Assembly (NCBI GenBank): GCA_031258505.1
Contig: JAIRMT010000013.1
Location: 1 to 47,969 of the forward strand
DNA from: Treponema sp.
GTDB lineage: Bacteria; Spirochaetota; Spirochaetia; Treponematales; Breznakiellaceae
Direction of reading: 5' to 3'
Length of the DNA: 47,969 bases
Position numbers and translations under genes: made by a program. A model generated the notes under the pieces. It saw nothing but the letters and a program-made list of their open reading frames with translations, ran no database searches and had not been told where the DNA came from. Positions 3,872-43,380 of the stretch are shown here, in pieces (within the stretch, counting starts at the first letter, position 1; each line of letters opens with the position of its first letter).

Positions 3872-4750
3872 TTATATGTTCGTTGCTAGTTCGGGCCTGA
3901 CTTCGCCGGTCTCTAGCGACAGCAAATACTTGCCCCACTTGCCCGCCCAATCGCGCAGAGCTTGTACGCTAAGCGGGTTCGGAGCGCGGGAATCTGTGTG
4001 CGCGGCTATCTCCCGCGCCAGCGATAAATACACCTGCGCCTGAGCTGAATCAGGCGCAGCCTCTATGGTGGTCTTGCCTTGCAGTTCACACTGCGTAACC
4101 GTAACCGAGCGGGGGATATATTCCACTACGCGAGTCTGTGTCTGAGCCACAAAGTCATCGATAATTTCTTTCGCATAGGGCTGGTTAATCGAATTGGCTA
4201 TTACGCCGCCCAGTAACGCGCCGCCAGAGTTGGAGTATTTCTGGATGCCGCGAAAAAGGTTGTTCGCCGCGTAAACCGCCATGAAGTCCGCCGAGGAGAC
4301 AGTGAAGACGTGTTGAGCTATGCCTTCACGAATCGGAACCGCGAAACCGCCACAGACCACGTCGCCAAGCACGTCGTAGATCACGAAGTCCAGGTCAAGT
4401 TCCTCGAAGATGCGCTGCTGCTTGAACAGTTCTACGGCAGTGATGATGCCGCGCCCAGCACAGCCAACTCCGGGCGAGGGACCGCCAGCTTCCACGCAGT
4501 ACACGCCGTTAAAGCCTCTGAAAATAACTTCATGGGCGTTGACCGCGCTCTTTTCCCGCAGGGTATCGAGTACGGTCGGGATGTAGGTTCCATCGCGGAG
4601 GGTGTTGGTCGAGTCGCTTTTGGGATCGCAACCAAACTGCATGACCTTGTAGCCGAGTTTTGAGAGAGCGGCGCTCAGGTTGGATGTAGTGGTGGATTTG
4701 CCAATGCCTCCTTTGCCATAGATTGCGATCTGTTTTGCTTTGCCCATCAT
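3872..4750 (-). CDS. NifH-family ATPase / [4Fe-4S] reductase component of a nitrogenase-like enzyme
   Basis: 292 aa. It has the P-loop GKGGIGKS, switch I CDPKSDST, and both cluster cysteines in NifH-type contexts ([17 protein letters not shown] and [14 protein letters not shown]). Confidence 0.93.
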
Positions 4751-4757
4751 AGCCCTC

Positions 4758-6317: not shown

Positions 6318-6329
6318 ATTTTCTACTCC

Positions 6330-7670: not shown

Positions 7671-7691
7671 TTCATATACCTCCATATTGTT

Positions 7692-8639
7692 TTAACCATG
7701 AGAAAACGTTTCCTCAATAGGCGTTCTGTTTTCGCCATAGATGAGGGACGCAAAATCCCCCTTACCCGGAATGCCGATGGCGTCGGCGCGGCAGTGCTGA
7801 CAGTGCCTGAACACTGGCAAGTAGGCTTCAGCCGCCTCACGAGCGCGGCTAAGCGCGTCGCAGTCCGGCGCGCTGTATTCCGCGAACTCGTGTTGGGGTA
7901 TGAGGGGAATAATGTTAATGATAGACGCGCCCCAATCATGCGCGGCGCGGGCAATGTCGGCGATGTGTGTGTCGTTAACGCCCGGAATCAGCACGATGTT
8001 AATCTTGATGGTGAAGCCAATGTCCGCCGCCTCTTGTATACCCCGCTCTTGCGCGCTGATTAAGAAGACCGCGCCTTCAACGCCAGTATAGACCTTGCCG
8101 TCAAGCATTACATGGGAACAAATCCGGTGAAGAATGACTGGATCAACAGCGTTCACGGTTACGGTCAGAGTTTTGACTCCGACCTGTGCAAGGTCTTGGG
8201 CGTAGCGCTCCAGCAACAAGCCGTTGGTGGATAGACATTTGATGAGCGCCGGGTATGCCTGATGAATGAGCGCGAAGGTTTCAATGGCGTGAGTCGTTGC
8301 CAGCGTATCTCCCGGACCAGCGATACCTGCCACTGTGATGTCAGGACAGCGTTCCAGCGCCTCTTTCACCAGGTCAACCGCGTCTTTTGGCGCAAGCAGT
8401 CTCGCGCTTACCCCAGGGCGATTCTCGAACTTGTTAAACGAGCGCTTGCAGAACCGGCACTGTATGTTACACACCGGACTGACAGGCAAATGCACCCGTC
8501 CATGATTCAAGGTTGCCCCGCTAGAAAAGCAGGGGTGATTCAGCGAAGGGTGAAGGCTGGAGCGCGCATTAGCGGTTCCAGTGGATTGAAGAATCTTGAC
8601 ATTCTCCGTAATCGCTGAAGCAGCGAGAGCTGCACTCAT
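7692..8639 (-). CDS. nifB: NifB-like radical-SAM cofactor maturase (stand-alone SAM domain, no C-terminal NifX domain)
   Basis: 315 aa. It has HPCF...[20 protein letters not shown] (a CX3CX2C motif), [32 protein letters not shown] and a C-terminal [12 protein letters not shown]. These are the characteristic NifB motifs. Its ATG overlaps the cysK stop (ATGA). Confidence 0.88.
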
Positions 8640-9583
8640 AGCGGTCGTTCCAGTGAATCGAAGAGCGCTGTTGAGAGATAGCGTTCGCCCGTATCTGGCA
8701 GGAGCGCGACAATGGTCTTGCCTTGAAACTCCGGTCGTTTGGAGATTTGGGTTGCTGCGTATACAGCCGCGCCTGAAGAAATGCCCACGAGCAAGCCTTC
8801 GGTTATGGCAAGACGCTGGGACGCGATATAGGCTTCCTCAGTACGCACCTTGTAAATCTCGTCGTATATCGAGGTGTTAAGCACATGGGGTACAAAACCC
8901 GCGCCTATGCCCTGAATCTTGTGCGGACCTGGCGCTGAACCAGACAGTACCGCTGAATCGTAGGGTTCCACGGCAATCACTTTTATTGCCGGATTCTGCG
9001 CTTTGAGGAACTCGCCCGCGCCAGTGATAGTGCCGCCAGTTCCAATGCCTGCGACAAAGGCAGCCACATCGCCGTCAGTGTCCCGCCATATTTCAGGACC
9101 AGTGGTTTTCCGGTGAATGTCTGGATTTGCCGCATTGTTAAACTGCTGGGGAATAAAGGAACCGTTAATCTGAGCGTGGAGTTCCTCAGCCTTCCTGATA
9201 GCGCCTTTCATGCCGTCCTTACCCGGTGTGAGTACCAGCTCTGCGTTCAGCGCGCTCAACAGTTTCCGCCGCTCTATACTCATGGTGTCGGGCATAACCA
9301 GAATGATGCGGTAACCCTTAGCTGCGGCGACAAAAGCCAGCCCCACGCCAGTATTCCCACTCGTTGGCTCAATCAGCACGCTGTCCTTGGTTATCAGCCC
9401 CTGCTGTTCCGCCGCCTCGATCATTGCCAGCGCGATACGGTCTTTAACGCTCCCCGCTGGATTGAAGTATTCCAGCTTTGCCACGAGCCTTCCCTTCAGC
9501 TCAAAGCCCTCAGCATAGCCGCTCAGTTCCAGCAGCGGCGTATTCCCGATAAGCTCCGTCAGTTTCTTTGCAATCTTTGCCAT
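8636..9583 (-). CDS. cysK: Cysteine synthase A / O-acetylserine sulfhydrylase (first gene of the nitrogenase-like operon)
   Basis: 315 aa. PLP-lysine motif [15 protein letters not shown] loop and [20 protein letters not shown]. Confidence 0.93.
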
Positions 9584-28567: not shown

Positions 28568-29599
28568 ATGAAAAAGATGCTATGTTCTTTTCTGGTTCTG
28601 TCGGTTCTTGCGGGTAGCCTATGGGCAAGCGGCAAGAAAGATTCAGCAAGTTCGGGTAGCGCGGCAGCTTCCGAACCAGCCCTGTCAGGGAAAAAGGTAA
28701 TTGTGGCGGATGCGAATTCCACCCACCACCTCAACCTCTATGTGGCTTATGAAAAGGGGCTGTTCACCAAGCGCGGTCTTGAGGTGGAAATCCAGCAGAC
28801 CAGTTCCGGGGTTGCCGCAGTGGTAGGCGGGGAAGCGGACATCGTGTTTAATTGCCCCACCGGAGTCATTACGCCTATCGCCAAAGGGCAAAACATCACC
28901 ATCATCGGTCAGGTGAAAATTCCTTGCACTTCCGTACTGGTCGTCCCGGCTGACTCGCCTTACAAAACGCCGGCTGACCTCAAGGATCTGCAAATCGCCG
29001 GGCTGTCTACCACCTGCTGCGCCGTGGTGATTATCCGGGATGCCCTTCAGGAGCAATACAATACCGAGTTTGAACTGGTAACACTAGCTCCGGCTGCGGC
29101 GATACAGGCCCTTGAAGCCGGGCAGGTGAAGGGCGCGATCCTTGAGGAACCTTTTGTCGCTCTGGCTCTGCTCCAGAAAGATGCCAATGGCGAGGCAACA
29201 TACAAGACGCTTTTTGACGGCACTTCCGATGCGGACGGCGACGGCAATAACGACGCGAACCTTGCTGGGGTTAATCCTCCCTGCCGGACTATCAACGCCA
29301 ACACCAGCTTTGTGGCCTCCCGCGAAAGCGATGCGAAAGCCTTTATTGAGGCCATCGCTGAAGCAGACCAGCTTATCCTGGCAAATCCGGTCGCCCCGGA
29401 CATCGTGGACATTGCCGCCAAATACGTCAGCGTTGACCGGCAGGCAATCATCAACAGCAACCCGAAACTAGGCTTTACCACCCAGCTTGATACAGCCGGC
29501 CTCATCGGTTACGCCGATGCCCTGGTAAAACTGGGAACCATCGACCGGAATCCGGGCGAGGCCCTGTTTGCCCCGCAGTTTAAGGGAATCACCTGGTAG
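28568..29599 (+). CDS. ABC transporter substrate-binding protein, NMT1/SsuA/TauA-like (NitT/TauT family)
   Basis: 343 aa with a signal peptide and AAGGAG SD. It is followed by a matching permease and ATPase. Confidence 0.8.
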   Translation: MKKMLCSFLVLSVLAGSLWASGKKDSASSGSAAASEPALSGKKVIVADANSTHHLNLYVAYEKGLFTKRGLEVEIQQTSSGVAAVVGGEADIVFNCPTGVITPIAKGQNITIIGQVKIPCTSVLVVPADSPYKTPADLKDLQIAGLSTTCCAVVIIRDALQEQYNTEFELVTLAPAAAIQALEAGQVKGAILEEPFVALALLQKDANGEATYKTLFDGTSDADGDGNNDANLAGVNPPCRTINANTSFVASRESDAKAFIEAIAEADQLILANPVAPDIVDIAAKYVSVDRQAIINSNPKLGFTTQLDTAGLIGYADALVKLGTIDRNPGEALFAPQFKGITW

Positions 29600-29638
29600 A
29601 GCAATCCGCAGGGCTGCCATTAGAAAAGGAGATGAAAA

Positions 29639-30508
29639 ATGAGAGCTAAAAATAGCGGCCTTGCATTTTTTGGAGAAGAAACCATGACTGATTACGAGAC
29701 AAAAGGTATCCGCCGGGTCTTGCTTGAACTCGGCGGCTTCCTCAAAAATTCCTTGGGGAATTTTTTCTCCCCAGAATTTTTGTGCGTTTTAATACCATTG
29801 CTCCTGCTCTGGGAATTCCTGCCTCGCTGGGGAGTGCTACCCGAAGGACTTGTCCCCAGCCTTTCAACAGTAGTGGCGCGTTTCTGGTATATGCTCTGGC
29901 ACAAACAGCTTGTCCTACACATCGGTATCAGCATGGGGCGTTTCTTTACGGCTTTCGGCATAGCCGTTGTTTTGGCGGTTCCCATCGGCCTCTTGATGGG
30001 CTGGAATCTTAAAATCCGCGCCTTTGTACTGCCCCTCTGGCAGTTACTCTCGCCCATACCACCGCCAGCCTGGGTTCCCATGACAATCATCTTTTTCGGT
30101 ATCGGATCAAAAATGCACATCTTCCTCATGTTCATCGGGATTTTTTATCCCGTGCTGTTTAACACCTACCAAGGAATCAAAGACACCGACCCTCGCTACC
30201 TCGCTTCGGCCCGAGTCTTCGGAGCCAGCGAATTCACCCTGCTGCGGAAAGTCTATTTTTGGCACGCTTTCGGTTCCATCATCATGAGCCTCAAGACTGG
30301 CGTCGCAATGGGGCTGGTGATGCTGCTCATCGGCGAATCCTACGGCGGGCGTTACGGCATTGGTTATCTTTTGGGGCAGGCAAAAGATTATTTTGTCATT
30401 CCCGAAATGATGGTCTGTATGGCAATCCTCGGCTGGATTGGCTGGTTCCTTATCGAAATTCTCAAATACATCGAGATAAAACTTGCGGTGTGGAAAGTGG
30501 GGAGATAG
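29639..30508 (+). CDS. ABC transporter permease (NitT/TauT family, SsuC/TauC-like)
   Basis: Polytopic BPD-transporter-type protein. An alternative start is at 29684 (MTDYETKG). Confidence 0.85.
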   Translation: MRAKNSGLAFFGEETMTDYETKGIRRVLLELGGFLKNSLGNFFSPEFLCVLIPLLLLWEFLPRWGVLPEGLVPSLSTVVARFWYMLWHKQLVLHIGISMGRFFTAFGIAVVLAVPIGLLMGWNLKIRAFVLPLWQLLSPIPPPAWVPMTIIFFGIGSKMHIFLMFIGIFYPVLFNTYQGIKDTDPRYLASARVFGASEFTLLRKVYFWHAFGSIIMSLKTGVAMGLVMLLIGESYGGRYGIGYLLGQAKDYFVIPEMMVCMAILGWIGWFLIEILKYIEIKLAVWKVGR

Positions 30509-30515
30509 GCGCGAC

Positions 30516-31421
30516 ATGATTGAAGCAAAAAGCATCGGCAAATTTTTTTCAGTTATAAACGAGAAGGGAATCGCCGAGGGGCTTACGGCAGTGTTAAACG
30601 TGTCCCTCACCATTCCTGACGGTAAAATCGTTTCGCTTCTGGGACCATCCGGCTGCGGCAAGTCAACGTTTCTGGAAATCCTGGCTGGATTGCAAGCGCC
30701 CACTGACGGCACGATTCACATAGACGGCAAGCTGGTGCTGGAACCGCTGCCCGCAACACGCAAAGAGCAAATCGCCTACAGACGGCGTTACCGGTTTATC
30801 TCTCCCCTTGCCAACGGCGTGTTCCGCGACCACCCCAAGCATGACATCGCCATGATATTTCAGGATTACGCAGTTTTCCCCTGGATGACGGCGAGCCAAA
30901 ACGTGGAGTTCGCGCTCAAACTGCGCAACGCCGGAAGAACAGGACCAGCCCGGCTCAAACGGGCAGAACTCACCGAGAAGGCGCGCTTCTACTTACACAA
31001 AGTAGGCTTGAGCAGCTTCGCCAATAAGTACCCATCTCAACTTTCAGGCGGTATGCGCCAGCGCCTTGCTCTTGCCCGCGCCCTTTCGGTGGAACCAAAA
31101 ATTATTTTGATGGACGAGCCATTCGCAGCAGTGGACGCATTAACCCGCGAAAAATTGCAGGACGAATTACTACGACTCTGGAACGAGATAACGCCATCTC
31201 CGATTACCATTATACTTGTTACCCACGAAGTGCAGGAGGCAGTGTACCTTTCCGACGAGGTGATTGTCTTTTCACCAGGACCGGGAACTATCCGCAATCG
31301 AATCCCCATTGAGACCAAACGCCCCAGAGCTAGAACCGATTCGACGCTGGTAGAAATTCAGGAGCGTATTTTCGCCATGTTTCAATATGACCTTAATCAG
31401 GAGGCAGATTATTCAATATGA
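30516..31421 (+). CDS. ABC transporter ATP-binding protein (SsuB/TauB-like)
   Basis: Start at 30516 ([11 protein letters not shown]). Walker [10 protein letters not shown], signature LSGGMRQR and Walker [12 protein letters not shown] are present. Confidence 0.9.
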
Positions 31422-32374
31422 GTGTTAATCTTACGGATAGTCGTGGAAAAATCTATAGCAATATCACCGAAGCGAGGGGAAATACGCCGCTGGTAAAACT
31501 GGCGAAACTCGGCTTGGGACTTCCGGCAACCGTGCTTGCCAAAGTGGAATCTTTTAATCCTATGAATAGCGTCAAGTGTCGTATTGGCGCGGCTATGCTG
31601 GACGCCGCTGAACGGGACGGTAAACTCAAACCCAGCGGTATAGTGATTGAGCCGACCAGCGGCAATACCGGCATAGGGCTTGCTTTTGCCTGTGCCGCCA
31701 GAGGCTATAAACTTGTTCTTACCATGCCGGAAACAATGTCGGTTGAACGACGCAAGCTGGCCCAAATGCTAGGCGCAGATGTGGTGCTGACCAGCGGCAA
31801 AGACGGCATGAAGGGCGCCATGCGTAAAGCCGAAGAACTGGTAAGCCAGACGCCCGGAAGTTTCATGCCGCTGCAATTTGACAACCCTGCCAATCCCGAG
31901 GCGCACCGCCGCACCACCGCTGAGGAAATCTGGGCTGACACTGCTGGAAACGTGGATATCTTTGTCGCCGGAGTGGGAACTGGCGGAACCATCACTGGCG
32001 TGGGCGAGGTGCTGAAAAAGCGCAAGAACAACGTGAAAATAATCGCTGTGGAGCCTGACGCATCTCCGGTTCTTTCAGGCGGTTTGCCCGGACCCCACCG
32101 CATACAGGGTATCGGGGCGGGCTTTATCCCCAAAGTGTTGAACCGTTCCATCATTGACGAGATTGTGCGCGTTACCAACGAGGACGCAATCATCACCGCC
32201 CGCAGGGTTGCCCGTATGGAAGGCATACTCGTTGGCATTTCCGCAGGAGCTGCAGTGTGGGCCGCTCTGCAAATCGCCGCGCAGCCGGAAAATAACGGAA
32301 AAAATATCGTGGTTATTCTCCCCGATTCAGGGGAGCGGTATCTGTCAACACAGCTTTCTGACCTGGAGGTATGA
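31418..32374 (+). CDS. cysK: Cysteine synthase A paralogue
   Basis: 318 aa with NPMNSVKCR (PLP lysine), TSGNTG and GTGGTITG. Its ATG overlaps the ATPase stop (ATGA). Confidence 0.92.
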
Positions 32375-32951: not shown

Positions 32952-33881
32952 ATGAATATGCTTGATTTAATCGGGAATACCCCGCTGGTTGAACTTAAAA
33001 AAATCTCCGCTGAACTTAATGGCGTGTCGATACATGCTAAGGCGGAGTTCCGCAATCCTTCTGGTTCCGTCAAGGATCGGGCGGCAAAAGCCATGCTCCT
33101 TGACGGCATTGAATCCGGCAAACTATGTCCCGGAAAGACCATCATCGACGCCTCAAGCGGCAACACGGGTATTGCCTACGCCATTTTAGGAGCAATCTTG
33201 GGCTATCCAGTAAGAATATATCTTCCGGCAAACGCCAGTTGGGAACGAAAAGCCTTCATCGCCTGCTGTGGAACAGCCGTTGTGGAGACCAATGCCCTGG
33301 AAAGCTCCGATGGCGCGTATCTGGCCGCAAAAGCCGAAGCGGAATCCCAAGCAGATAAATACTTCTGGCCTGACCAGTACAACAACGATGCTAACTGGAA
33401 AGCCCACTACCATACCACTGGTGTTGAAATATGGGAACAGACAGAGGGCAAAATTACTCACTTTATTACTGGCATGGGTACATCAGGAACATTCATGGGA
33501 ACTTCTCGAAGGCTCAAGGAGTACAACAAAAGCATTGAGGCTGTGGCAGTACAGCCTGATTCGCCCTTCCACGGCATTGAAGGAACAAAGCACATGGCCA
33601 GTTCCATTAAACCGGGATTTTACGATGAAACATTCCCCGACCGTTTTGTCATGGTCAATACTGAGGCGGCCTATGCCATGACTCGCAGACTTGTCCGTGA
33701 TGAAGGTCTTTTCGTGGGAATCAGTTCCGGCGCAAACGTGCAGGCTGCCCTTGACCTGGGGCGCACCTTGCCCCCAGGTTCGCTCATTGTTACCATGTTA
33801 TGCGATTCGGGCTTCCGCTATCTTTCGGATGCGTTCTGGAACATACCAGTTGAACTCAAAGGTCATGGAGAAGGAATATGA
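32952..33881 (+). CDS. cysM: CysM-type cysteine synthase (probably sulfur-carrier-protein dependent)
   Basis: 309 aa with NPSGSVKDR and SSGNTG. It is translationally coupled (ATGA) to the JAMM-CysO gene and followed by moeZ, as in the mycobacterial CysM/CysO/Mec/MoeZ system. Confidence 0.85.
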   Translation: MNMLDLIGNTPLVELKKISAELNGVSIHAKAEFRNPSGSVKDRAAKAMLLDGIESGKLCPGKTIIDASSGNTGIAYAILGAILGYPVRIYLPANASWERKAFIACCGTAVVETNALESSDGAYLAAKAEAESQADKYFWPDQYNNDANWKAHYHTTGVEIWEQTEGKITHFITGMGTSGTFMGTSRRLKEYNKSIEAVAVQPDSPFHGIEGTKHMASSIKPGFYDETFPDRFVMVNTEAAYAMTRRLVRDEGLFVGISSGANVQAALDLGRTLPPGSLIVTMLCDSGFRYLSDAFWNIPVELKGHGEGI

Positions 33882-34579
33882 TTCAGTTGTCCGCTCAATG
33901 TTTAGACGCAATCCGTACAGAAGGTGAAAAGGCGTACCCGAATGAGTGCTGCGGCGCTTTGTTAGGCGTAATTTTTGATGATGACAAGCGCCTAGTTCAA
34001 AGCATCTTTCCCATTACCAATGCCCGCGAGCAAACGGAACAGTACCATCGCTTTGAAATAGAACCGGAAGATTTGCTGCGGGCTGAAAAAGAGGCAAGGT
34101 CGCAAAATAGGGACGTGCTTGGATTTTACCATTCCCACCCGGATCATCCGGCGCGTCCCTCAGAATACGACCGGAACAACGCCTTTCCATTTTATTCGTA
34201 TCTGATTGTATCGGTTGAGAAAAAGAAGGCGGCGGCTCTGACAAGCTGGCGGCTTTCCGACGACCGGAAAGAAATTTTTGAAGAAGTAGTTAAGGAGGAA
34301 ACTATGGCGGTAATCATTCAAATCCCGACAGCCCTGCGGGGTTTTACGGAACGGAAACATGAAGTTGAGGTTGAAGGCCAGACCGTAGGTGAGGCAATCA
34401 ATGCCCTTGCCGGAAAGTACCCGGACTTGCGGCAGCATCTTTATCAAGGTGAAAATTTGCGTTCGTTTATCAACGTGTTTGTAGGCGATACCAACATTAA
34501 GAAACTTGAAGGGCTTGATACAAAACTGTCAGGTAACGAAACAGTCATGCTGGTTCCAGCAATCGCTGGCGGCGCCTAA
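33878..34579 (+). CDS. In-frame fusion of a JAMM/MPN+ metalloprotease (Mec-like) and a ThiS/MoaD-type sulfur carrier (CysO-like)
   Basis: The N-terminal 142 aa carry ECCGALLG and HSHPDHPARPSEYD (the JAMM motif). The C-terminal 91 aa form a beta-grasp-sized domain ending AIAGGA. No stop codon lies between the domains. Confidence 0.85.
   Translation: MIQLSAQCLDAIRTEGEKAYPNECCGALLGVIFDDDKRLVQSIFPITNAREQTEQYHRFEIEPEDLLRAEKEARSQNRDVLGFYHSHPDHPARPSEYDRNNAFPFYSYLIVSVEKKKAAALTSWRLSDDRKEIFEEVVKEETMAVIIQIPTALRGFTERKHEVEVEGQTVGEAINALAGKYPDLRQHLYQGENLRSFINVFVGDTNIKKLEGLDTKLSGNETVMLVPAIAGGA
34304..34579 (+). CDS. cysO: Possible independently translated CysO-like sulfur carrier (internal start)
   Basis: The ATG at 34304 is in frame and preceded by AAGGAGG at 34292-34298 (5-nt spacing). 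The product MAVIIQIP...VPAIAGGA is 91 aa. Confidence 0.5.
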   Translation: MAVIIQIPTALRGFTERKHEVEVEGQTVGEAINALAGKYPDLRQHLYQGENLRSFINVFVGDTNIKKLEGLDTKLSGNETVMLVPAIAGGA

Positions 34580-34580
34580 C

Positions 34581-35762
34581 ATGAACTCTATTATAGAAGA
34601 AAGCCGCCTCATTAGTCTCACCAACGAGGAGATTGCCCGCTACAGCCGCCATCTTCTCTTGCTAGAAGTCGGCATTGAGGGACAGAAACGGCTCAAGGCG
34701 GCGAAGGTCTTGCTTGTGGGAACTGGCGGCCTCGGCGCTCCACTTGCGCTTTACCTTGCCGCCAGTGGCGTGGGGACTATCGGCATCGTGGACTTTGACT
34801 TTGTGGAGGAATCAAACCTTCAGCGACAGGTGATCCATTCCACACGGGATGTGGGTCGTCCTAAAGTCGCGTCAGCGCAGGAGCGCATCAAGGGCATAAA
34901 TCCAAAGTGCAATGTGATAACGTATAACACTATGCTCAACAGCGGCAACGCCCTTGACATCATCAAAGAATACGACATTGTTGCTGACGGTACTGACAAT
35001 TACCAGACCCGCTACCTTGTGAACGATGCCTGCGTGTTATTGGGAAAGCCCAATGTGTATGGCTCGGTATTTCAATTTGAAGGGCAGGTTTCGGTTTTCT
35101 TCGCCAAAGAAGGACCTTGCTACCGCTGCCTGTACCCGGAACCGCCGCCGCCGGGACTCGTACCCTCCTGCGCCGAAGGCGGCGTTGTCGGGGTATTGCC
35201 CGGCATCATCGGCTGTATTCAGGCAAACGAAGTAATCAAACTCATTACCGGTTTCCGGGAAGAGGATGGCGCAAGCCTTATCGGGCGGCTGCTTCTTTTT
35301 GACGCATGGAAAATGAAGTTTCGGGAACTCGTTCTGGACAAAGAAAGCGCCTGCCCTATCTGCGGCGCAAACCCCACAATCCATGAGTTGATTGATTACG
35401 AGCAATTCTGCGGCCTTAAAAAAAGCGATGAGGCGGAACCCATAGAAACCATCAGCGCAACAGAACTGAAATCCCGGCTGGATGCGGGCGTTCCAGTACA
35501 AATCATCGACATCCGGGAACCTCACGAGCGGGCAATCGCAAAGTTTCCCAACGCAAAGTCAATCCCTCTGGGGCAGATGACCCGCCGCATTGACGAGTTT
35601 GACCCAGCGATTGACTCGGTATTCATCTGTAAAATTGGACAGCGGAGTGTTTTCGCCATTCACGCCTTACGCGAGGCTGGCTACAAGGGCCGGCTGCTCA
35701 ACTTGAAAGACGGTGTGAACGGCTGGGCGCGGGAAGTGGACAGGCTGCTGCCTGTTTATTAA
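34581..35762 (+). CDS. moeZ: MoeZ/MoeB-like E1 adenylyltransferase with C-terminal rhodanese domain
   Basis: Start at 34581, 1 nt after the CysO stop. It has the nucleotide loop VGTGGLGAP, CxxC pairs (CYRC, CPIC) and a rhodanese active-site loop (CKIGQRS). Confidence 0.88.
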   Translation: MNSIIEESRLISLTNEEIARYSRHLLLLEVGIEGQKRLKAAKVLLVGTGGLGAPLALYLAASGVGTIGIVDFDFVEESNLQRQVIHSTRDVGRPKVASAQERIKGINPKCNVITYNTMLNSGNALDIIKEYDIVADGTDNYQTRYLVNDACVLLGKPNVYGSVFQFEGQVSVFFAKEGPCYRCLYPEPPPPGLVPSCAEGGVVGVLPGIIGCIQANEVIKLITGFREEDGASLIGRLLLFDAWKMKFRELVLDKESACPICGANPTIHELIDYEQFCGLKKSDEAEPIETISATELKSRLDAGVPVQIIDIREPHERAIAKFPNAKSIPLGQMTRRIDEFDPAIDSVFICKIGQRSVFAIHALREAGYKGRLLNLKDGVNGWAREVDRLLPVY

Positions 35763-35780
35763 ATAGAAAGGAGAATGATT

Positions 35781-36734
35781 ATGGCAGAAAAGACAATCAA
35801 CGCATTGGGACGGAGCGCGGCATATCAGCTTGCGAATGTTACAAAAACACCGCCCCAGTTTGGCTCCCTTACCCCTAAATGGCTTACAAGGGTACTGGAA
35901 TTCAAAGGACTTGAAGCGGGTATTTACCGGGTTAATCGGGTCGCTGAGGGCGAAACGCCTCTTGACGTTCTGTGCAGCCAGGACCCGAAAAAAGTTGAGA
36001 TTCCCCAGGGCTTCGTGGATTACGTTTCAAAACCGCGGGAGTATCAACTCAGCTCAATATCCACGATTATCAATGTGGACACTAAAGTTTCAGATGTCTA
36101 CAGTTCGCCGTATGACCAGACTCAGGAACAGATAAAGCTGGCAGTTGAAAGCCTCAAGGAGCGGCAGGAGAGTCAAATCATCAACAGCGATGATTACGGC
36201 CTCCTCAAAAACGCCGTGGACAGTCAGCGTATACAAACCCGCTACGGCCGCCCCATGCCCGACGACTTGGATGAACTCATCACCAAAGTATGGAAAGAGC
36301 CGAGTTTCTTCCTGGCTCATCCTCGCGCTATCGCCGCCTTTGAGCGGGAATGCACCCGTCGGGGCGTCCCGCCGGTAACGGTAACTATTGCCGGAGGAAT
36401 TTTTATCGCGTGGCGGGGCATTCCTCTTATTCCCACGGACAAGCTCTTTGTGGACGGCCTCAAGAACCCCAAAGCCAAAACCGGCAAGACCAATATCCTG
36501 TTAGTCCGTACCGGTGAAGCCAAACGCGGTGTTGTGGGCCTCTACCAGGCTGGCGTTCCGGGCGAACAGAGTCGCGGTCTTTCGGTGCGTTTTCGGGGCA
36601 TTGACGATAATGGCGTTGCCTCGTACCTCCTCTCGGTGTACTGCTCCGCAGCCATTCTCGCTGATGATGCTGTGGCCGTGCTGGAAGACGTGGAGGTAGG
36701 AGATTACTATGAATATACCCAACAGCCGGTTTAG
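35781..36734 (+). CDS. Family 2A encapsulin shell protein (SrpI-like, HK97-fold nanocompartment)
   Basis: Recalled SrpI-family motifs are present: GIYRVNRV, PREYQLSSIST, KVSDVYSSPYDQ, KVWKEPSFFLAHPRAIAAFERECTRRGVPP, WRGIPLIPTDK and ILLVRTGEAKRGVVGLYQ. The ATG at 35781 has AAGGAG 7 nt upstream. Confidence 0.8.
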   Translation: MAEKTINALGRSAAYQLANVTKTPPQFGSLTPKWLTRVLEFKGLEAGIYRVNRVAEGETPLDVLCSQDPKKVEIPQGFVDYVSKPREYQLSSISTIINVDTKVSDVYSSPYDQTQEQIKLAVESLKERQESQIINSDDYGLLKNAVDSQRIQTRYGRPMPDDLDELITKVWKEPSFFLAHPRAIAAFERECTRRGVPPVTVTIAGGIFIAWRGIPLIPTDKLFVDGLKNPKAKTGKTNILLVRTGEAKRGVVGLYQAGVPGEQSRGLSVRFRGIDDNGVASYLLSVYCSAAILADDAVAVLEDVEVGDYYEYTQQPV

Positions 36735-38184
36735 TTTTTCAGAGTGGGGCTTGCCGTCTGCGGCAGAGATAGCCGCGTTAGCCGCGAACTATTTCCCTGA
36801 ATTCGGCAATGCGCCCGCAGGCAGGTCCCCGCAGCCAGTGTCAGAGGTCATTTCGCCTAACGCCTATTCGCCGGTTGTGCTTCCCAAAGAAAAAAAGCTG
36901 GAGCATAGCGGTTCCGCAGCGCGTCAAGCCAGCGGCGCCAGACTCTACGCCAAAACACAGGGCGTTTCAGTCGGTCATCGTTCCCTTGATTCCATACGCG
37001 CTGATTTCCCCATTCTTGCGGAAAAGGTATCAGGCGGCCATGACCTGGTGTGGTTTGATAACGCGGCTACTACCCAGCGACCCAGGCAGGTAATTGAGCG
37101 CCTGTCCTATTATTATGAACACGAGAATTCCAATGTCCATCGAGGAGCGCATGAACTGGCGGCACGTTCTACCAACGCCTACGAGGAAGCCAGGGCGAAG
37201 ATTGCCTGCTTTTTAGGCGCGCCCTCGCCGGACAATATTGTGTATGTACGGGGAACTACTGAAGGGATAAATCTTGTGGCACAGGCTTATGTCAAACCGC
37301 TGCTCAAAGCTGGGGACGAGATAATTCTTACCATGCTGGAACACCACGCCAACATTGTCCCCTGGCAGCTTATCGCCGCTGAAACTGGAGCGGTTCTGCG
37401 GGTTGCGCCGATTGACCAAAGCGGCCAGCTCATTCTTTCGGAGTACGAAAAACTCTTTAACAGCCGCACCCGCTTTGCCGCAGTAACCCATGTGTCAAAC
37501 GCTTTAGGCACGATTGCGCCAGTGGAGGAACTGGTACACATCGCTCATGCCCGCGGAGTGCGAATCCTCATTGACGGGGCGCAGTCTGTGTCGCATATTC
37601 CGGTGAATGTCGCGGCTCTGGACACTGATTTTTTCGTGTTTTCGGGGCATAAGATTTTCGGGCCAACAGGTATAGGGGCGCTTTATGGTAAAAGCGATGT
37701 TCTGGAAGCAGCCCAGCCATACCAAGGTGGAGGTAACATGATTTTCGATGTTACCTTTGAGCGTACCCTCTATCACAAGCCGCCCGCGAAATTTGAGGCA
37801 GGTACTGGCAGCATTGCGGACGCGGTGGGTCTGGGCGCGGCGCTGGACTATGTTTCGGAGATTGGCATACAGAATATCGCTGCATGGGAACACGAACTCC
37901 TGCAATACGGCATGAAAGAACTTGCGAAGATTCCCGGCCTGCGTCTCATTGGAACAGCCGCTGAAAAGGCGAGCGTCCTCTCCTTCGTGCTTGAAGGACA
38001 CAGCCTTGAGGAAGTAGGTAAACATCTCTCAAGTCGGGGAATCGCCGTCCGCGCCGGGCATCACTGCGCCCAGCCAGTACACCGATTCTTTGGCCTTGAA
38101 GGAACCGTTCGCCCCTCTGTTGCCTTGTACAACACGTTGGGCGAGATTGACAAGCTTGTAACGGCAGTAGGAGAGCTGGTATGA
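36709..38184 (+). CDS. Cysteine desulfurase (SufS/CsdA-like) with N-terminal disordered cargo-loading extension
   Basis: The catalytic domain starts around residue 95 (FPILAEK...VWFDNAATTQRP) and includes HHANIVPW and SGHKIFGPTGIGALYG. The Pro/Ala/Ser-rich N-terminal ~90 aa contain AEIAALAANYFPEF. AGGAG SD. Confidence 0.88.
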   Translation: MNIPNSRFSFSEWGLPSAAEIAALAANYFPEFGNAPAGRSPQPVSEVISPNAYSPVVLPKEKKLEHSGSAARQASGARLYAKTQGVSVGHRSLDSIRADFPILAEKVSGGHDLVWFDNAATTQRPRQVIERLSYYYEHENSNVHRGAHELAARSTNAYEEARAKIACFLGAPSPDNIVYVRGTTEGINLVAQAYVKPLLKAGDEIILTMLEHHANIVPWQLIAAETGAVLRVAPIDQSGQLILSEYEKLFNSRTRFAAVTHVSNALGTIAPVEELVHIAHARGVRILIDGAQSVSHIPVNVAALDTDFFVFSGHKIFGPTGIGALYGKSDVLEAAQPYQGGGNMIFDVTFERTLYHKPPAKFEAGTGSIADAVGLGAALDYVSEIGIQNIAAWEHELLQYGMKELAKIPGLRLIGTAAEKASVLSFVLEGHSLEEVGKHLSSRGIAVRAGHHCAQPVHRFFGLEGTVRPSVALYNTLGEIDKLVTAVGELV

Positions 38185-39395
38185 AGCAAAAAAAATTATG
38201 TGCCGACCGTATCGGCGATCAGACGCTGTCAATTCACGCCGGTGAATTTCCCGATCCGCTTACCGGCGCTTCCGCGCCAAACCTGGTCATGTCCACTACC
38301 TTTGTGGTAGAGGCTGACACAGGATTTTCCGTCGAGGGTATGGGTGAAAACGATCCCTTTGTGTATACCAGGTGGGGCAACCCTACCATCAGACAGCTTG
38401 AGGAAAAACTCACTGCCTTGGAGGGTTCGGAGACTGCTGTGGCCTTTGCAAGTGGCATGGCTGCTGCCACTGCCCTGCTGCTGCATACACTCAAAGCTGG
38501 GGACCACGCGGTGGTGAGCGATGTTACCTACGCCGCAGTGTCGGAGGCTGCCAATGAACTGTTTCCGGGTTTGGGGTTTCAGATTAGTAAAGTTGATACT
38601 TCAGATTTAGACGCACTGCGTGAGGCGGTGCGGCCTAATACCCGGCTCATTTATATCGAAACCCCCTGTAACCCGCTCTTGCGCTTGACGGATATTGCGG
38701 CTGCCGCTGATATAGCGCATAAGGCAAATGCCCTTCTTGCGGTGGATTCAACTTTTGCCACCCCCGCTGGAACTAAACCGCTTGCGTTGGGGGCGGACTT
38801 CGTTATCCATTCCCTAACCAAGTATCTAGGCGGCCACGGCGACGCGCTGGGCGGCGCGATTCTGGGGAGAGCCGCAGACCTTGCGCCGCTTCGCAAAAAA
38901 ACCGCAGTCCGTCTGGGTGGAACCCTAAGCCCCTTTAATGCCTGGCTGATTCTCCGGGGGCTTGCCACTTTTCCCCTACGCATGAAGGCTCACGAGGAAA
39001 ACGCGCTCAAGGTAGCCGCATTTCTTGAAAGCCATCCAAAAGTGGTAAAACTGATCTACCCTGGCCTACCGTCTCACCCCCAGCATGAACTCGCCCAGCG
39101 GCAGATGAAGAATTTTTCCGGCATGGTAACCTTTCAAACAGAAAAAGGCAAAGAAACCGCCATTGCCCTGGCGAAAAAGCTGAAGATAATCCATTACGCA
39201 GTTTCCCTGGGTCATCACCGCTCGTTGATTTTTTATCTTAACAGCGAAGAGCTTTTAAAAACCTCGTTCAGGCTTGATACCCCAAAGCAGCTTGAATCGT
39301 GGAAAGCATTTGCTGGTGAGGGGATTTTTCGTCTTTCTGTGGGGCTGGAAAACGCGGAAGACATAATCGCCGATTTAGAACAAGCAATCGGCTGA
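38181..39395 (+). CDS. Cys/Met-metabolism PLP enzyme (cystathionine gamma-lyase/synthase, methionine gamma-lyase or O-acyl-homoserine sulfhydrylase family)
   Basis: 404 aa with YTRWGNPT, AVDSTFATP and the PLP lysine in HSLTKYLGGHGD. ATGA overlap with the desulfurase gene. Confidence 0.85.
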   Translation: MKQKKLCADRIGDQTLSIHAGEFPDPLTGASAPNLVMSTTFVVEADTGFSVEGMGENDPFVYTRWGNPTIRQLEEKLTALEGSETAVAFASGMAAATALLLHTLKAGDHAVVSDVTYAAVSEAANELFPGLGFQISKVDTSDLDALREAVRPNTRLIYIETPCNPLLRLTDIAAAADIAHKANALLAVDSTFATPAGTKPLALGADFVIHSLTKYLGGHGDALGGAILGRAADLAPLRKKTAVRLGGTLSPFNAWLILRGLATFPLRMKAHEENALKVAAFLESHPKVVKLIYPGLPSHPQHELAQRQMKNFSGMVTFQTEKGKETAIALAKKLKIIHYAVSLGHHRSLIFYLNSEELLKTSFRLDTPKQLESWKAFAGEGIFRLSVGLENAEDIIADLEQAIG

Positions 39396-39404
39396 GGAGT
39401 AACT

Positions 39405-40376: not shown

Positions 40377-40834
40377 TCAAGCGATTCAAGGTTTTTTATA
40401 AAAAACCTTGAAACCTATTGACACTTGATGTTTTACAAGATACATTCTTAGTAAATCAGTAGGTATTATAAGCAAAGGAGCTTTTATGTCGGAACTAAGT
40501 ATAAGCACTGCGTCAAATGGCCTAAGCGTTGGCAAAGACTCGGCGCTGTCCATCCATTTTGACTGGCGCACTCTGATCCCACTCGTCTCGGTCGCCTTTA
40601 CCCAGGTACTGCATACCGCGCTGCCAGTAGCGTCAACGTATCGCACCAAGGTTCTACCGTGGTTCACCTGGTTCAACGTCGTTGCTATCGGGGTACTGGC
40701 AATACTCGCGGTGGTGAGTCTCTTTAACAGCCGGTATCGGGAACGGTTCACGTATAAATCATGGTTTCTGGGGGTAGCGTTTCTTCTGCTCAACTTGTAT
40801 AACCTCATCACCGTCAAGTTCGACCTGATTCCCA
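40377..40834 (+). repeat. Copy C of the dispersed direct repeat (the functional copy, continuous with the full-length permease)
   Basis: It aligns with 21311-21745 (copy A) and with copy B from about 28250 to 28545. Confidence 0.85.
40387..40446 (+). promoter_or_regulatory. Perfect 24-bp palindrome plus sigma70-like promoter (copy C)
   Basis: CAAGGTTTTTTATAAAAAACCTTG at 40387-40410. TTGACA at 40418-40423, a 17-nt spacer, and TACATT at 40441-40446. AAGGAG at 40475-40480. Confidence 0.55.
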
Positions 40835-41502
40835 GCCTCTATTTCCCATCGCCGGAACGGATCGTGTATGTATTTCTCACAGACTGGTTCTTTATACTGC
40901 GCTGCCTAGTCTACTCGCTCCGTTTGTTGCTGGGCGGCTTCTTCCTCGGCGCGCTGCTTGGGGTGCTAACCGGTACGCTCATCGGCTGGAGCCAGCGCTG
41001 GAACTACTGGATCATGCCCTGTATCCGAATCGTGGGACCGATTCCATCAACCGCCTGGATACCCATCGCGCTGGTGGTCTTCACAAAAGCGACCGATGCA
41101 GCGCTGTTCCTCATCGCCCTGGGAGTCTGGTTCCCCACAACGGTACTCACCAGTTCAGGCATCCTCAATGTGCGGAAAAGTTACTTCGAGGTTTCAAGCA
41201 CCTTGGGAGCGAGCAATCTGCGGAATGTGCTTTCCATCGCCCTACCCGGCGCCGCGCCAAACATCTTCGCGGGCCTGTTTAACGGCACATCGTCGTCATT
41301 CCTAACCCTTATGGCCGCTGAAATGATCGGCTGTAAGTTCGGCATTGGCTGGTACATCAACTGGCAGAGGGAAACCATGGCGTATTCACAGGTGTACGCA
41401 GCGCTCATCGTGATTGCCATAACCTTTTCACTCCTCATTAACCTCCAGTTCAAGATTCGCAATCGCGTCCTGAGTTGGCAGAAAGGCACAATTCGGTGGT
41501 AG
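40486..41502 (+). CDS. ABC transporter permease (NitT/TauT family) with an extra N-terminal membrane extension of about 110 aa
   Basis: 338 aa. The C-terminal ~230 aa resemble permease 29639..30508. The N-terminal extension is the part duplicated in copies A and B. Confidence 0.88.
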   Translation: MSELSISTASNGLSVGKDSALSIHFDWRTLIPLVSVAFTQVLHTALPVASTYRTKVLPWFTWFNVVAIGVLAILAVVSLFNSRYRERFTYKSWFLGVAFLLLNLYNLITVKFDLIPSLYFPSPERIVYVFLTDWFFILRCLVYSLRLLLGGFFLGALLGVLTGTLIGWSQRWNYWIMPCIRIVGPIPSTAWIPIALVVFTKATDAALFLIALGVWFPTTVLTSSGILNVRKSYFEVSSTLGASNLRNVLSIALPGAAPNIFAGLFNGTSSSFLTLMAAEMIGCKFGIGWYINWQRETMAYSQVYAALIVIAITFSLLINLQFKIRNRVLSWQKGTIRW

Positions 41503-41510
41503 GTGAAAAT

Positions 41511-42305
41511 ATGCAAACAGCAGTACATGGCGGAACCATACGGATCAACGGTGTAACTAAAACCTTTCCTCAAGAAGGCGCGGCTGATATTACCGTGCTG
41601 GATAACATCAGCCTTGTTTTCAAAAGCGGCGAGTTTATTTCTCTCATCGGCCCATCCGGATGCGGGAAGTCAACCCTGCTGCGGCTCATCGCTGGACTTA
41701 CCCAAAGCGATAGCGGCTCACTTTTTTTGGATGACGCCGAGATACAAGCGCCGGGACATGAGCGAGGGCTGGTGTTTCAGGACCCAACCCTGTTCCCGTG
41801 GAAAACCATCTGGGAGAACATCGCCTTCGGGCTGCGGGCGCGTGGGGTCTATCGTGAAGAAAAACAGAACATTCCCGGGTTTTTCAAGCTCGTGGGGCTT
41901 GAGGGCTTTGAGAAGTCCTATCCTCACCACCTTTCCGGCGGTATGGCGCAGAGGGCGTCGCTGGCCAGGACCCTCATCAATAACCCAAAAGCGCTCCTGC
42001 TTGACGAGCCTCTGGGCGCTCTTGACGCCTTTACCCGCATGAATATGCAGGACGAGATTCTCAAGATATGGGAAGAACGTCGAATGACTATGGTCATGGT
42101 TACGCATGATGTTGATGAGGCGATTTACATGGCTGACCGCATCGTGGTCATGTCAGCGCGCCCGGCTAAGATTGAAAAGATGATTACAGTGGAGATTGGC
42201 CGTCCGCGACAGCGCGACGACCCGGACTTCCTCGACCTGCGAGCGAAGATACTACAAATCCTGCACTTCGCGGGCGCAAAGCAGGAACCGGAGTACAACT
42301 TGTGA
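41511..42305 (+). CDS. ABC transporter ATP-binding protein (SsuB/TauB-like)
   Basis: Start at 41511 (MQTAVHGG). Walker [10 protein letters not shown], signature LSGGMAQR and Walker B LLLDEPLGALD are present. Confidence 0.9.
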   Translation: MQTAVHGGTIRINGVTKTFPQEGAADITVLDNISLVFKSGEFISLIGPSGCGKSTLLRLIAGLTQSDSGSLFLDDAEIQAPGHERGLVFQDPTLFPWKTIWENIAFGLRARGVYREEKQNIPGFFKLVGLEGFEKSYPHHLSGGMAQRASLARTLINNPKALLLDEPLGALDAFTRMNMQDEILKIWEERRMTMVMVTHDVDEAIYMADRIVVMSARPAKIEKMITVEIGRPRQRDDPDFLDLRAKILQILHFAGAKQEPEYNL

Positions 42306-42354
42306 AAAAACCGTCGTTGACGGAGAACATCTTTTTAAGGAGAGGATATAAACT

Positions 42355-43380
42355 ATGAAAAAAGCTATCCTTTTGCTTTCATTGGTTTGCGTGGCGGTAC
42401 TTAGCGTCCACGCAAGAGGTCAGAATCAGGGAACTTCCGCTGCTGCAGCGGAAGACCCGAACTATGTGGTCAAGATCGGACGGTCAGTCTCCGTCGGTCT
42501 TTGTACTTCACCTTTCGTCATCGCCGAGCATTTCGGTTACTACGAGGAAGAGGGACTCAAGTGGGATTCTGTCGCTATTGAGACAGGTCAGGCCAACCTC
42601 CTGCTCACCACCGGCGCGGTTGATGTTACCAACAACCTTTTGGCCACGCTCATTCAGCCCATTGCCAATGGTCTTGACGTGAAGATTCCCCTGGGCATAC
42701 ACACGGGCTGCCAGAAGGTACTGGTACGCGTTGATTCTGATATACAAACGCCCGCAGACCTTCGCGGCAAGCGAATCGGCACAACCGGCATGGCATCCAG
42801 CGGCACGGTCATCACCCAGCGCTATCTCGCGGAACTAGGCATTGGCGTTACCGCCGATAACCTTGAGGTTGAGTGGCTGATCTATCAGCAGGCAGACCTC
42901 CCGTTGGCGCTTGAGCGGGGACAGGTTGACGCCATCGCGCTTGGAGACCCGACCGCTTACATCGTTGAGCAGGAAGGAAAGGCTAGGGTAATCATCAATC
43001 AGGCTACAGACGACTACCTCAAGGACGAATTCTGCTGTGTGGTAGTTGCTTCAGCCAACTTTGTGAAGGATCATCCCGAAGCTGCGGCAAAGTTCACCCG
43101 CGCTATTCAGAAAGCCGCAGCCTTTGTGCAGGAGAACCCTGATGAGACCGCCCGTATTCTTGATGAGCGAAAGTATGTGGCCGGCGATCCAGAGGTAAAC
43201 GCCGCCATACTCAAGACCTACAACTTTAGGGCTTCGGTGAGCGAGGCGGAAGTGGCGATTTCCCGTAATACGCGCGACCTCCAGAGAATCAATCTGGTGG
43301 ACAGCGACGTTGACCCCGACGCCCTTACGCGGAACGTCTTCATTGCCCTGCCCGGTGTGCCGGATTCACTGTATAAGTGA
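42355..43380 (+). CDS. ABC transporter substrate-binding protein (NMT1/SsuA-like)
   Basis: 341 aa with a signal peptide (MKKAILLLSLVCVAVLSVHA) and GGAGAGG SD. Confidence 0.8.
   Translation: MKKAILLLSLVCVAVLSVHARGQNQGTSAAAAEDPNYVVKIGRSVSVGLCTSPFVIAEHFGYYEEEGLKWDSVAIETGQANLLLTTGAVDVTNNLLATLIQPIANGLDVKIPLGIHTGCQKVLVRVDSDIQTPADLRGKRIGTTGMASSGTVITQRYLAELGIGVTADNLEVEWLIYQQADLPLALERGQVDAIALGDPTAYIVEQEGKARVIINQATDDYLKDEFCCVVVASANFVKDHPEAAAKFTRAIQKAAAFVQENPDETARILDERKYVAGDPEVNAAILKTYNFRASVSEAEVAISRNTRDLQRINLVDSDVDPDALTRNVFIALPGVPDSLYK

Follow-up and report, generated by a model that had tools for sequence, protein, structure and literature searches.

A probable Family 2A cysteine desulfurase encapsulin with a short predicted cargo-loading domain beside CysO-type genes in Treponema

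The DNA analysed here (the window) is a stretch of 47,969 nt from Treponema sp. (GenBank assembly GCA_031258505.1, contig JAIRMT010000013.1, positions 1 to 47,969, the contig in full). Two overlapping genes on its plus strand, between 35781 and 38184, very probably (we put this at about 85%) form a Family 2A (SrpI-type) desulfurase encapsulin, in which a shell protein would enclose a SufS-type cysteine desulfurase; packaging and sulfur storage are predicted from homology, and a link to a CysO-type pathway is proposed from gene context. As judged from their translations, both proteins are intact family members that carry the expected catalytic residues and loading motif. The pair comprises the following features.

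35781..36734, plus strand: Family 2A encapsulin shell protein, 317 aa (NF041162, PF19307, PDB matches, identity to SrpI), with an alternative ATG at 35775
36459..36482, plus strand: Lys-rich insertion LKNPKAKT, 8 residues, shell residues 227-234 (gap of 8 versus SrpI and the A. baumannii shell)
36709..38184, plus strand: predicted cargo of 491 aa, a cysteine desulfurase of the SufS type that bears an N-terminal loading domain (TIGR01979, identity to CyD)
36709..36990, plus strand: predicted cargo-loading domain, residues 1-94, Pro/Ala/Ser-rich (composition; no SufS structure match)
36745..36804, plus strand: predicted loading motif 1, WGLPSAAEIAALAANYFPEF, residues 13-32 (clade consensus, Azospirillum alignment)
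36865..36885, plus strand: candidate loading motif 2, YSPVVLP, residues 53-59 (Y-[A/S/K]-P-V-V-L-P-like motif in relatives)
36991..38181, plus strand: desulfurase catalytic domain, with the pyridoxal phosphate (PLP)-binding Lys315 (SGHK) and the persulfide Cys453 (GHHC); Aminotran_5 match over residues 114-483, 1.2e-137

In the open reading frame (ORF) list, the shell frame is open on the plus strand from 35775 to 36734. The region 5' of the shell reads TAA-ATAGAAAGGAGAATGATTATGGCAGAA, and its Shine-Dalgarno-like GGAG abuts the alternative ATG at 35775; a ribosome-binding site (RBS), AAAGGAGA, lies 7 nt 5' of the ATG at 35781. Because of this spacing, and because the homologues are 317 aa long with MAEK as their first residues, the start is probably 35781. 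The protein scored 488.8 bits against the NCBIfam equivalog NF041162 (encap_f2a; cut-off, 380), covering model positions 1-295 of 295, and its residues 57-309 matched Pfam PF19307, "Type 2A encapsulin shell protein SrpI-like," with an E value of 8.3e-96 (320 bits versus a cut-off of 22.8). The top PDB match was the Acinetobacter baumannii shell 8T6R (1.6e-114), SrpI of Synechococcus elongatus (6X8M) was matched at 4.6e-113, and two further shells, both mycobacterial "major membrane protein I" (9ksl and 8wol), were also found; across the four solved Family 2A shells the E values ran from 1e-100 to 1e-114, with alignments that extended from query residues 3-11 to 314-315. Pairwise BLASTP against SrpI gave 56% identity (171/305, 5e-131), a similarity for which chance is excluded. 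From these solved structures we infer that the shell adopts the HK97 fold with the Family 2 N-arm.

The match to the other subfamily was partial. Only positions 207-449 (the C-terminal 243) of the 450-position 2B model aligned with the shell, at 380.4 bits and thus under the cut-off of 400, while the solved 2B shells, which are 470-477 aa long and bear a cyclic nucleotide monophosphate (cNMP)-binding domain, cover just residues ~59-311. A Pfam scan of the shell gave no cNMP_binding match. The protein therefore reads as a 2A shell that has no cNMP-binding insert in its E-loop. The insertion LKNPKAKT is the sole notable indel relative to SrpI; it appears as a gap of 8 in both PDB alignments and in BLASTP, and the residues around it are invariant in 20 clade members. 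A Pfam match of the shell to Imm33 (E = 1e-3, under the cut-off) was discarded as noise.

An earlier note on this DNA had called a SrpI-like shell of the 2A subfamily without a cNMP insert, overlapped by 26 nt by the desulfurase gene, and each of these calls is borne out; the length that it gave, 318 aa, is one residue too long. The SrpI blocks that it quoted are all present and align with SrpI, among them IYRVNRV, VSDVYSSPYDQ, KVWKEPSFFLAHPRAIAAFERECTRRGVPP, WRGIPLIPTDK, and ILLVRTGEAKRGVVGL. Two details of the quotation were wrong: "SPREY" is in fact S-K-PREY, and three residues, not two, stand between GE and GVVGL.

The cargo gene shares positions 36709-36734 with the shell gene and has a GGAG 6 nt 5' of its own ATG at 36709; related cargos share this start position, opening with M-[NT]-[IT]-P. 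Its product scored 523.4 bits against TIGR01979 sufS (cut-off, 475.1), as would be expected from the SufS-type desulfurase that had been proposed, and both the SGHK and the GHHC motifs are present. Residues 93-487 are 64% identical to the S. elongatus desulfurase CyD, whose encapsulation has been demonstrated by experiment. Among PDB entries, the top match was 8kg1 (5e-168, 563 bits), and the SufS proteins of Escherichia coli and Bacillus subtilis followed at ~1e-120 and ~400 bits.

The first 94 residues differ in composition from the remainder, with Pro, Ala, and Ser together making up 38% of this segment versus 22% of the catalytic domain. No SufS structure in the PDB matches the cargo before residue ~88-93, save two plant chains whose matches begin at residue 72. 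In S. elongatus, an N-terminal domain of ~225 residues directs the loading of CyD, and its first 100 residues suffice, although less efficiently; most CyD homologues share the motifs LARLANEFFS and AASPYYFLDG (PMC8049743). Motif 1, WGLPSAAEIAALAANYFPEF, aligns with the Azospirillum sequence GLIARLANQFFQ, which is the published motif, with IAALAANYF placed opposite IARLANQFF. The earlier note had described the first ~90 residues as Pro/Ala/Ser-rich and as containing a LARLANEFF-type motif, which agrees with the composition given above and with AEIAALAANYFPEF at residues 19-32.

We next compared the pair with 80 related loci, obtained from a scan of GTDB species representatives and picked by similarity to the window shell; the counts therefore describe a subclade, not all of Family 2A. 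A desulfurase gene lies directly 3' of the shell gene in all 71 assessable loci. For the motif counts, the desulfurase gene beside the shell was taken from 78 loci, and 73 of these cargos have an N-terminal domain of at least 40 aa. Motif 1, with the clade consensus yGLPSEaEIAaLAAaYFPEF, occurs near the N terminus of 60 of the 73, and a semiconserved Y-[A/S/K]-P-V-V-L-P-like motif follows it in 41 of those 60. Whether YSPVVLP is the counterpart of AASPYYFLDG is uncertain. In a six-frame translation of the window, motif 1 and motif 2 were present in no other reading frame, so no co-cargo was found. The N-terminal domain varies from 54 to 271 aa in length among the related cargos, and the window cargo, with 94 aa versus the usual ~225, is by its sequence a short-loading-domain variant.

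The shell and cargo genes stand within a longer run of genes, listed here with the matches on which each assignment is based.

28568..31421, plus strand: ATP-binding cassette (ABC) transporter 1, with an NMT1/SsuA-like binding protein, permease, and ATPase (Pfam)
31418..32374, plus strand: cysteine synthase A, CysK (TIGR01139, 452.7 bits versus a cut-off of 351)
32952..33881, plus strand: CysM-like cysteine synthase (PALP, 8.9e-69)
33878..34579, plus strand: JAB/JAMM protease (Mec-like) fused to a ThiS/MoaD-fold carrier (CysO-like) (Prok-JAB, 5.1e-27; ThiS, 4.8e-10, residues 147-232)
34581..35762, plus strand: MoeZ/MoeBR-like E1 adenylyltransferase with a rhodanese domain (ThiF, 6.4e-82; Rhodanese, 2.9e-11)
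38181..39395, plus strand: trans-sulfuration-family PLP enzyme, cystathionine gamma-synthase/gamma-lyase/sulfhydrylase-like (Cys_Met_Meta_PP, 2.1e-120); its start overlaps the cargo stop codon
39405..40373, plus strand: serine O-acetyltransferase, CysE/EpsC type (NF041874 EpsC, 151.1 bits versus a cut-off of 150)
40486..43380, plus strand: ABC transporter 2, with a permease, ATPase, and NMT1/SsuA-like binding protein (Pfam; syntenic in related loci L001, L002, and L075)

From 28568 to 43380, all genes are on the plus strand, and the gaps between them are short or the genes overlap. The order is ABC transporter 1, CysK, a small lipoprotein-like ORF, CysM-like, JAB-ThiS, E1-rhodanese, shell, cargo, trans-sulfuration enzyme, CysE, and ABC transporter 2; the first transporter is probably the start of this codirectional run. 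The E1-rhodanese gene stops 18 nt 5' of the shell start at 35781. The presence of CysE and CysK nearby, which had been likened to the srpG/srpH/srpI context, is confirmed by the coordinates listed above, and the S. elongatus pANL locus likewise has cysK and cysE.

The translated JAB-ThiS protein contains the JAMM motif HxHx7Sx2D as HSHPDHPARPSEYD and has the C terminus ...AIAGGA. As the carrier ends in GG-Ala and not in GG, self-trimming ahead of activation is implied, and this fused protease-carrier resembles the HcyS-Ala/HcyD system of Wolinella. The E1-rhodanese protein has two CxxC motifs and a rhodanese loop, C-K-I-G-Q-R, with the active-site Cys. It scored under the MoeZ and MoeB equivalog cut-offs and passed only the subfamily model NF004281 (293 versus 266 bits). 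No NCBIfam equivalog reached its cut-off with the trans-sulfuration enzyme, whose gene follows the cargo in none but the closest relatives; other loci carry it at a different position. Serine acetyltransferase is the "AT" component of the published operon types (PMC10836720).

With gathering thresholds, Rfam models matched nowhere in the window, so no S-adenosylmethionine (SAM) or other riboswitch was found. A promoter scan gave 16 sites versus 13.4 expected, no excess over chance; the best promoter-like site near ABC transporter 1 is at 28290-28318, and the sites at 28290 and 40418 are no more than hints of operon boundaries. In the gap between cysK and the cysM-like gene (32154-32838), there are two overlapping open frames, one of which has a lipoprotein-like signal, LVFLFLAIFVTAC, and STDNG(V/S)L repeats at its end. 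The intergenic region after ABC transporter 2 (43443-43773) holds ~14 tandem copies of a 23-bp unit, AGGAACTAGGCGTTAGTTCCTAG, neighboring copies of which form short hairpins. Codirectional genes 5' of the cysteine cluster (21795-28112) encode an iron-containing alcohol dehydrogenase (Fe-ADH)-like protein, a MetQ/NlpA-MetN-MetI methionine transporter whose genes are split by a gene of the ornithine cyclodeaminase/mu-crystallin family, and a class I/II aminotransferase; they stretch the sulfur-amino-acid theme to ~21 kb.

The genes around the shell-cargo pair recur in the related loci. Of 69 loci, 55 have a MoeZ-like gene within 600 nt 5' of the shell gene; CysM-like, Mec/CysO-like, and MoeZ-like genes are all found 5' of the shell in 41 of 57; and 30 of 54 have CysE on the 3' side of the cargo. 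The cassette CysM/JAB-ThiS/E1-rhodanese/shell/cargo/CysE recurs among gut anaerobes of many phyla. The closest relatives, with shells 84-96% identical, are termite-gut metagenome-assembled genomes (MAGs) labelled Treponema or Spirochaetia, one of which (L002) is collinear with positions 25409-43394 of the window at ~88% DNA identity. Shells 75-85% identical were found in MAGs labelled Synergistaceae, Desulfovibrio, Helicobacteraceae, Deferribacteraceae, Endomicrobium, and Fibrobacterales, as well as in others labelled Planctomycetota, Clostridia, Propionibacteriaceae, and rumen Lachnospiraceae. Such labels are fallible where contigs are short; since the related loci span GC contents of 0.37 to 0.71, with a value of 0.28 for one on a plasmid of Aliarcobacter cibarius (shell 70% identical), the hosts are truly different.

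This plasmid, pACIB (L081, NZ_CP043858.1 59670-78611), is mobilizable, 237 kb long, and 28% GC, and shows directly that a mobilizable replicon carries the cassette. Its version, CysM/M67 (JAB) protease/ThiS/rhodanese/shell/cargo/CysE/CysK, is broken by IS110 and IS5 insertions (insertion sequences), and the IS5 element seems to have left no more than the rhodanese end of the E1-rhodanese gene. Two other related loci, L037 and L038, are overlapping, opposite ranges of one 43-kb Spirochaetia contig (BNUT01000004.1); they have the CysM-to-cargo cassette at equal positions and identities, and their cargo N-terminal domains are identical, which suggests either an inverted duplication or an assembly artefact.

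If the homologues are a guide, 60 shell subunits would self-assemble into a T=1 icosahedron of ~24 nm, as in 8T6R and 6X8M, and desulfurase dimers would be packaged as their discontinuous N-terminal motifs dock on hydrophobic patches of the shell lumen. The packaged enzyme would convert cysteine to alanine and sulfane sulfur, and the latter would build up as stored elemental sulfur or polysulfide, as in the Acinetobacter system; by the same homology, the system would probably be induced under sulfur limitation. The A. baumannii homologue stores elemental sulfur and is induced ~10-fold under sulfur limitation (PMC10836720). Gene context further suggests that the shell-cargo pair may be cotranscribed with the genes for the MoeZ-like protein, the CysO-Mec fusion, the CysM-like synthase, and CysE. 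The most economical reading of this context would be that the rhodanese domain of the E1-like enzyme takes up sulfane sulfur derived from the compartment, that the JAB domain trims the terminal Ala so that the E1-rhodanese can load sulfur on the carrier as a thiocarboxylate, and that CysM and the protease return the carrier sulfur to cysteine. The compartment would then be a sulfur buffer, filled from cysteine and emptied back to cysteine.

This arrangement suggests that sulfur from the encapsulin may feed the CysO pathway. The route by which encapsulin sulfur is remobilized has been stated to be unknown, with a rhodanese proposed (Benisch et al., PMC10836720), and so has the sulfur donor of the mycobacterial MoeZR/CysO pathway (Voss et al., PMC3227635). 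We tentatively propose, as a possibility that we consider less likely than not, that in this subclade of gut anaerobes the encapsulin is the sulfur reservoir of a CysO-type thiocarboxylate pathway, in which the desulfurase banks elemental sulfur (S0) and the E1-rhodanese, the carrier-protease, and CysM withdraw it.

The main functional rival is gating without storage, in which the shell would let the desulfurase pass persulfide sulfur, via a pore or a small-thiol shuttle, to the E1-rhodanese only. The pair would then serve as a dedicated, insulated source of sulfur for CysO-thiocarboxylate or for a different product that depends on a thiocarboxylate, and no significant elemental sulfur would accumulate. 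The same idea was put forward by Andreas and Giessen for rhodanese-containing operons (PMC8346489), and it could account both for the MoeZ-like gene that abuts the shell gene in most loci and for the sulfur source missing from the MoeZR pathway. However, the A. baumannii compartment accumulates crystalline sulfur, in vitro and in E. coli, and the published pores, at 4-6 Å (PMC10836720), are too narrow for protein-to-protein persulfide transfer; moreover, making cysteine from cysteine sulfur without storage would be a futile cycle. We consider gating doubtful on these grounds.

Several observations weigh against a desulfurase encapsulin tied to the CysO-type genes. Assembly, loading, storage, and regulation are extrapolated from homologues at 56-64% identity; the CysO link is drawn from gene order; and the loop from cysteine to S0 and back is itself futile unless its halves are separated by time or regulation. 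An adjacent MoeZ-like gene is missing from 14 of 69 related loci. The CysM-like protein has TIGR01138 cysM as its top model, at 341.8 bits, under the cut-off of 394.2. Orthology of the E1 rhodanese domain with the stand-alone S. elongatus rhodanese, to which it is only 23% identical, is not supported, so that its correspondence to the published "R" component is not established. Within the cargo, the published motif AASPYYFLDG has no clear match. An AlphaFold2 model of the shell had a mean pLDDT (predicted local distance difference test) of 31.4 and a pTM (predicted template modelling score) of 0.19. This low confidence reflects an input alignment of 20 close homologues, 82-97% identical, that was both shallow and nearly uniform; as the model was unusable, the fold is argued from homology, and 56% identity to solved shells should settle it.

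A further shortfall concerns the cargo family itself. Against NCBIfam NF041166 (623 positions), the cargo scored 772.4 bits, under the cut-off of 800, and only model positions 218-622 were aligned. The N-terminal domain of the cargo, shorter than half of the usual length, leaves the first 217 positions of the model unaligned, which explains the deficit; a 502-aa Aliarcobacter homologue nevertheless bears the cargo name in RefSeq. The missed cargo model, the passed generic sufS model, and the short N-terminal domain could also be expected of an ordinary, nonencapsulated SufS that serves iron-sulfur (Fe-S) or thio-cofactor synthesis, with the shell nearby by accident and the extension a linker or a miscalled start. 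This is very unlikely, since no sufBCDE/U genes were found nearby, the start has its own RBS and a conserved position, the N-terminal motif matches the published loading motif and is widespread among relatives, a desulfurase follows the shell in every assessable locus, and the catalytic domain is nearer to CyD and 8kg1 than to the E. coli and B. subtilis enzymes.

Encapsulins have the HK97 fold in common with phage capsids, from which they are believed to derive (PMC10836720), so the shell gene could also be imagined as the relic of an HK97-type prophage capsid that has no cellular function. We regard this as extremely improbable. No phage genes flank it, all of its neighbors belong to sulfur metabolism, and the shell exceeds the curated cut-off for a family of cellular equivalogs; it is also 75-97% conserved, or 70% for the Aliarcobacter plasmid, across hosts of GC 0.28 to 0.71, which argues for purifying selection in a fixed metabolic context. 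We rejected both the relic and the housekeeping SufS, and we retain the Family 2A desulfurase encapsulin.

The window contains a second group of genes with a bearing on sulfur, which lies outside the encapsulin operon.

3872..9583, minus strand: Mar-like cluster of CysK, NifB-like, MarK-like, MarD-like, and NifH (PDB 9FMG matches, NCBIfam)

The NifD-like and NifK-like proteins are encoded at 4758-7685 on the minus strand. Against Rhodospirillum rubrum MarD and MarK (9FMG), the MarD-like protein scored 210 bits (best nitrogenase, 115) and the MarK-like protein scored 289 bits (next best, 86). In having NifD/NifK-like proteins closer to MarD/MarK than to nitrogenase, together with NifB-like and NifH proteins, the cluster resembles the R. 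rubrum methylthio-alkane reductase MarBHDK (PDB 9FMG; PMC12552129); its order here is cysK-B-K-D-H. The cluster is 26 kb from the encapsulin and on the opposite strand, and hence the two have no operon link in the window. Between it and the cysteine/encapsulin cluster are a V-type ATPase operon (12310-19051, minus strand; subunits I, D, B, A, and others), ispG, and other genes. In one Treponema MAG (L075), MarK-like and MarD-like genes (4043-6947) lie directly 5' of ABC transporter-shell-cargo-CysE, and CysK and NifB-like genes (17647-18528) lie 3'; in another (L002), CysK and NifB-like genes (17812-19667) directly follow ABC transporter 2. These adjacencies suggest a shared sulfur-acquisition island. 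The association is a recurrent neighborhood of sulfur-acquisition genes, not an operon; accordingly, the suggested connection with a nitrogenase-like sulfur system holds for the neighborhood in related Treponema genomes and fails as an operon link in the window.

The Family 2A desulfurase-encapsulin type is already known, with ~1,460 catalogued operons, and routine annotation recognizes the family. The bare identification of another shell-cargo pair matters little, and its value is as a lead. We searched open-access papers and preprints and found no relevant work linking encapsulins to termites, Treponema, CysO, or nitrogenase-like systems; the compact loading domain and the conserved operon-level CysO-type association are undiscussed there. 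The claim of novelty in spirochetes stands insofar as no experimental study was found in these sources; it is weakened by RefSeq, which names the 89%-identical orthologue of the cultured termite spirochete Leadbettera (Treponema) azotonutricia "family 2A encapsulin nanocompartment shell protein." The host had rightly been described as spirochete-like.

A shell-cargo pair joined to an apparently complete CysO-type gene set offers a concrete explanation, still hypothetical, of the way in which sulfur might exit the compartment. If true, the reservoir proposal would answer both of the questions stated to be open, the remobilization of encapsulin sulfur and the sulfur donor of the MoeZR/CysO pathway. 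The diet of wood-feeding termites is poor in sulfur. Together with the Mar-like genes and the sulfur-compound transporters, a reservoir of this kind, if real, would form part of a sulfur-scavenging island in symbionts of these insects. The predicted loading domain, at 94 residues and with a single sharply conserved motif of 20, could also be a handy minimal tag for dissecting or engineering Family 2A cargo loading.

Among known systems, the structure and function of Family 2A desulfurase encapsulins have been described for S. elongatus and for A. baumannii (PMC8049743, PMC10836720), and the shells solved by cryo-electron microscopy (cryo-EM) have the HK97 fold and 60 subunits in a T=1 particle of ~24 nm (PMC10836720). 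The window shell resembles SrpI of S. elongatus PCC 7942 (PDB 6X8M/6X8T; Nichols et al. 2021, PMC8049743) from end to end, N-arm included, and neither has a cNMP insert, but LKNPKAKT adds 8 residues to the window protein. The cargo shares with CyD both a similar catalytic domain (64% identical) and the presence of an N-terminal loading domain, which looks disordered here; in CyD this domain is ~225 aa long, and the two do not align. The S. elongatus locus has the order cysK-cysE(epsC)-srpI-cyd-rhodanese and is on a small plasmid, whereas the window locus is a codirectional gene run on a metagenomic contig. The rhodanese of S. elongatus is a stand-alone protein of 116 aa; that of the window is a domain of an E1-like enzyme beside CysO, Mec, and CysM homologues. 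In Azospirillum the order is shell-cyd-cysE, and the Azospirillum and S. elongatus cargos are 623-626 aa long, compared with 491 aa here.

The desulfurase encapsulin of A. baumannii 118362 (PDB 8T6R; Benisch et al. 2024, PMC10836720) provides the best PDB match to the shell, and its operon likewise combines rhodanese, serine acetyltransferase, shell, and desulfurase. It differs in its aerobic proteobacterial host and in a loading domain of ~225 aa with five partly conserved motifs. No ThiS, JAB, E1, or CysM genes are described in that paper, which gives four operon types only, with rhodanese and serine acetyltransferase as the only accessories. Catalogued desulfurase-encapsulin operons number 1,281-1,462, in 11-12 phyla (PMC10836720, PMC8346489). 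Variant operons with "cofactor synthesis" genes are mentioned in a figure legend of Andreas and Giessen (PMC8346489); going by that legend, these may be ThiF/ThiS-type genes like those in the window.

The neighboring cassette resembles the CysO/CysM/Mec+/MoeZR pathway of Mycobacterium tuberculosis (Voss et al. 2011, PMC3227635), which has a GG-ended ThiS-fold carrier, a JAMM protease, an E1 that bears a rhodanese domain at its C terminus, and a synthase of the CysM type. In the window, by contrast, a single protein combines protease and carrier, and its carrier part ends in GG-Ala; unlike MoeZR, the window E1 retains both CxxC motifs, the MoeB/MoeBR signature (PMC3227635). The mycobacterial set is not described with an encapsulin in the literature searched, whereas the window set is physically joined to one.

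A counterpart in culture is L. azotonutricia ZAS-9 (CP001841.1 754817-775758), with a shell 89% identical, a cargo that is also 491 aa long, and genes for CysM, JAB, ThiS, E1-rhodanese, CysE, the trans-sulfuration enzyme, CysK, and ABC transporter components. There, JAB and ThiS are separate genes (L084 5713-6407), two unrelated genes, one GH39-like and one sulfatase-like, are found between the E1-rhodanese and shell genes, and a small ferredoxin-like gene follows the cargo. With the same gene set in a cultured strain, the physiology of the system under sulfur limitation is opened to study.

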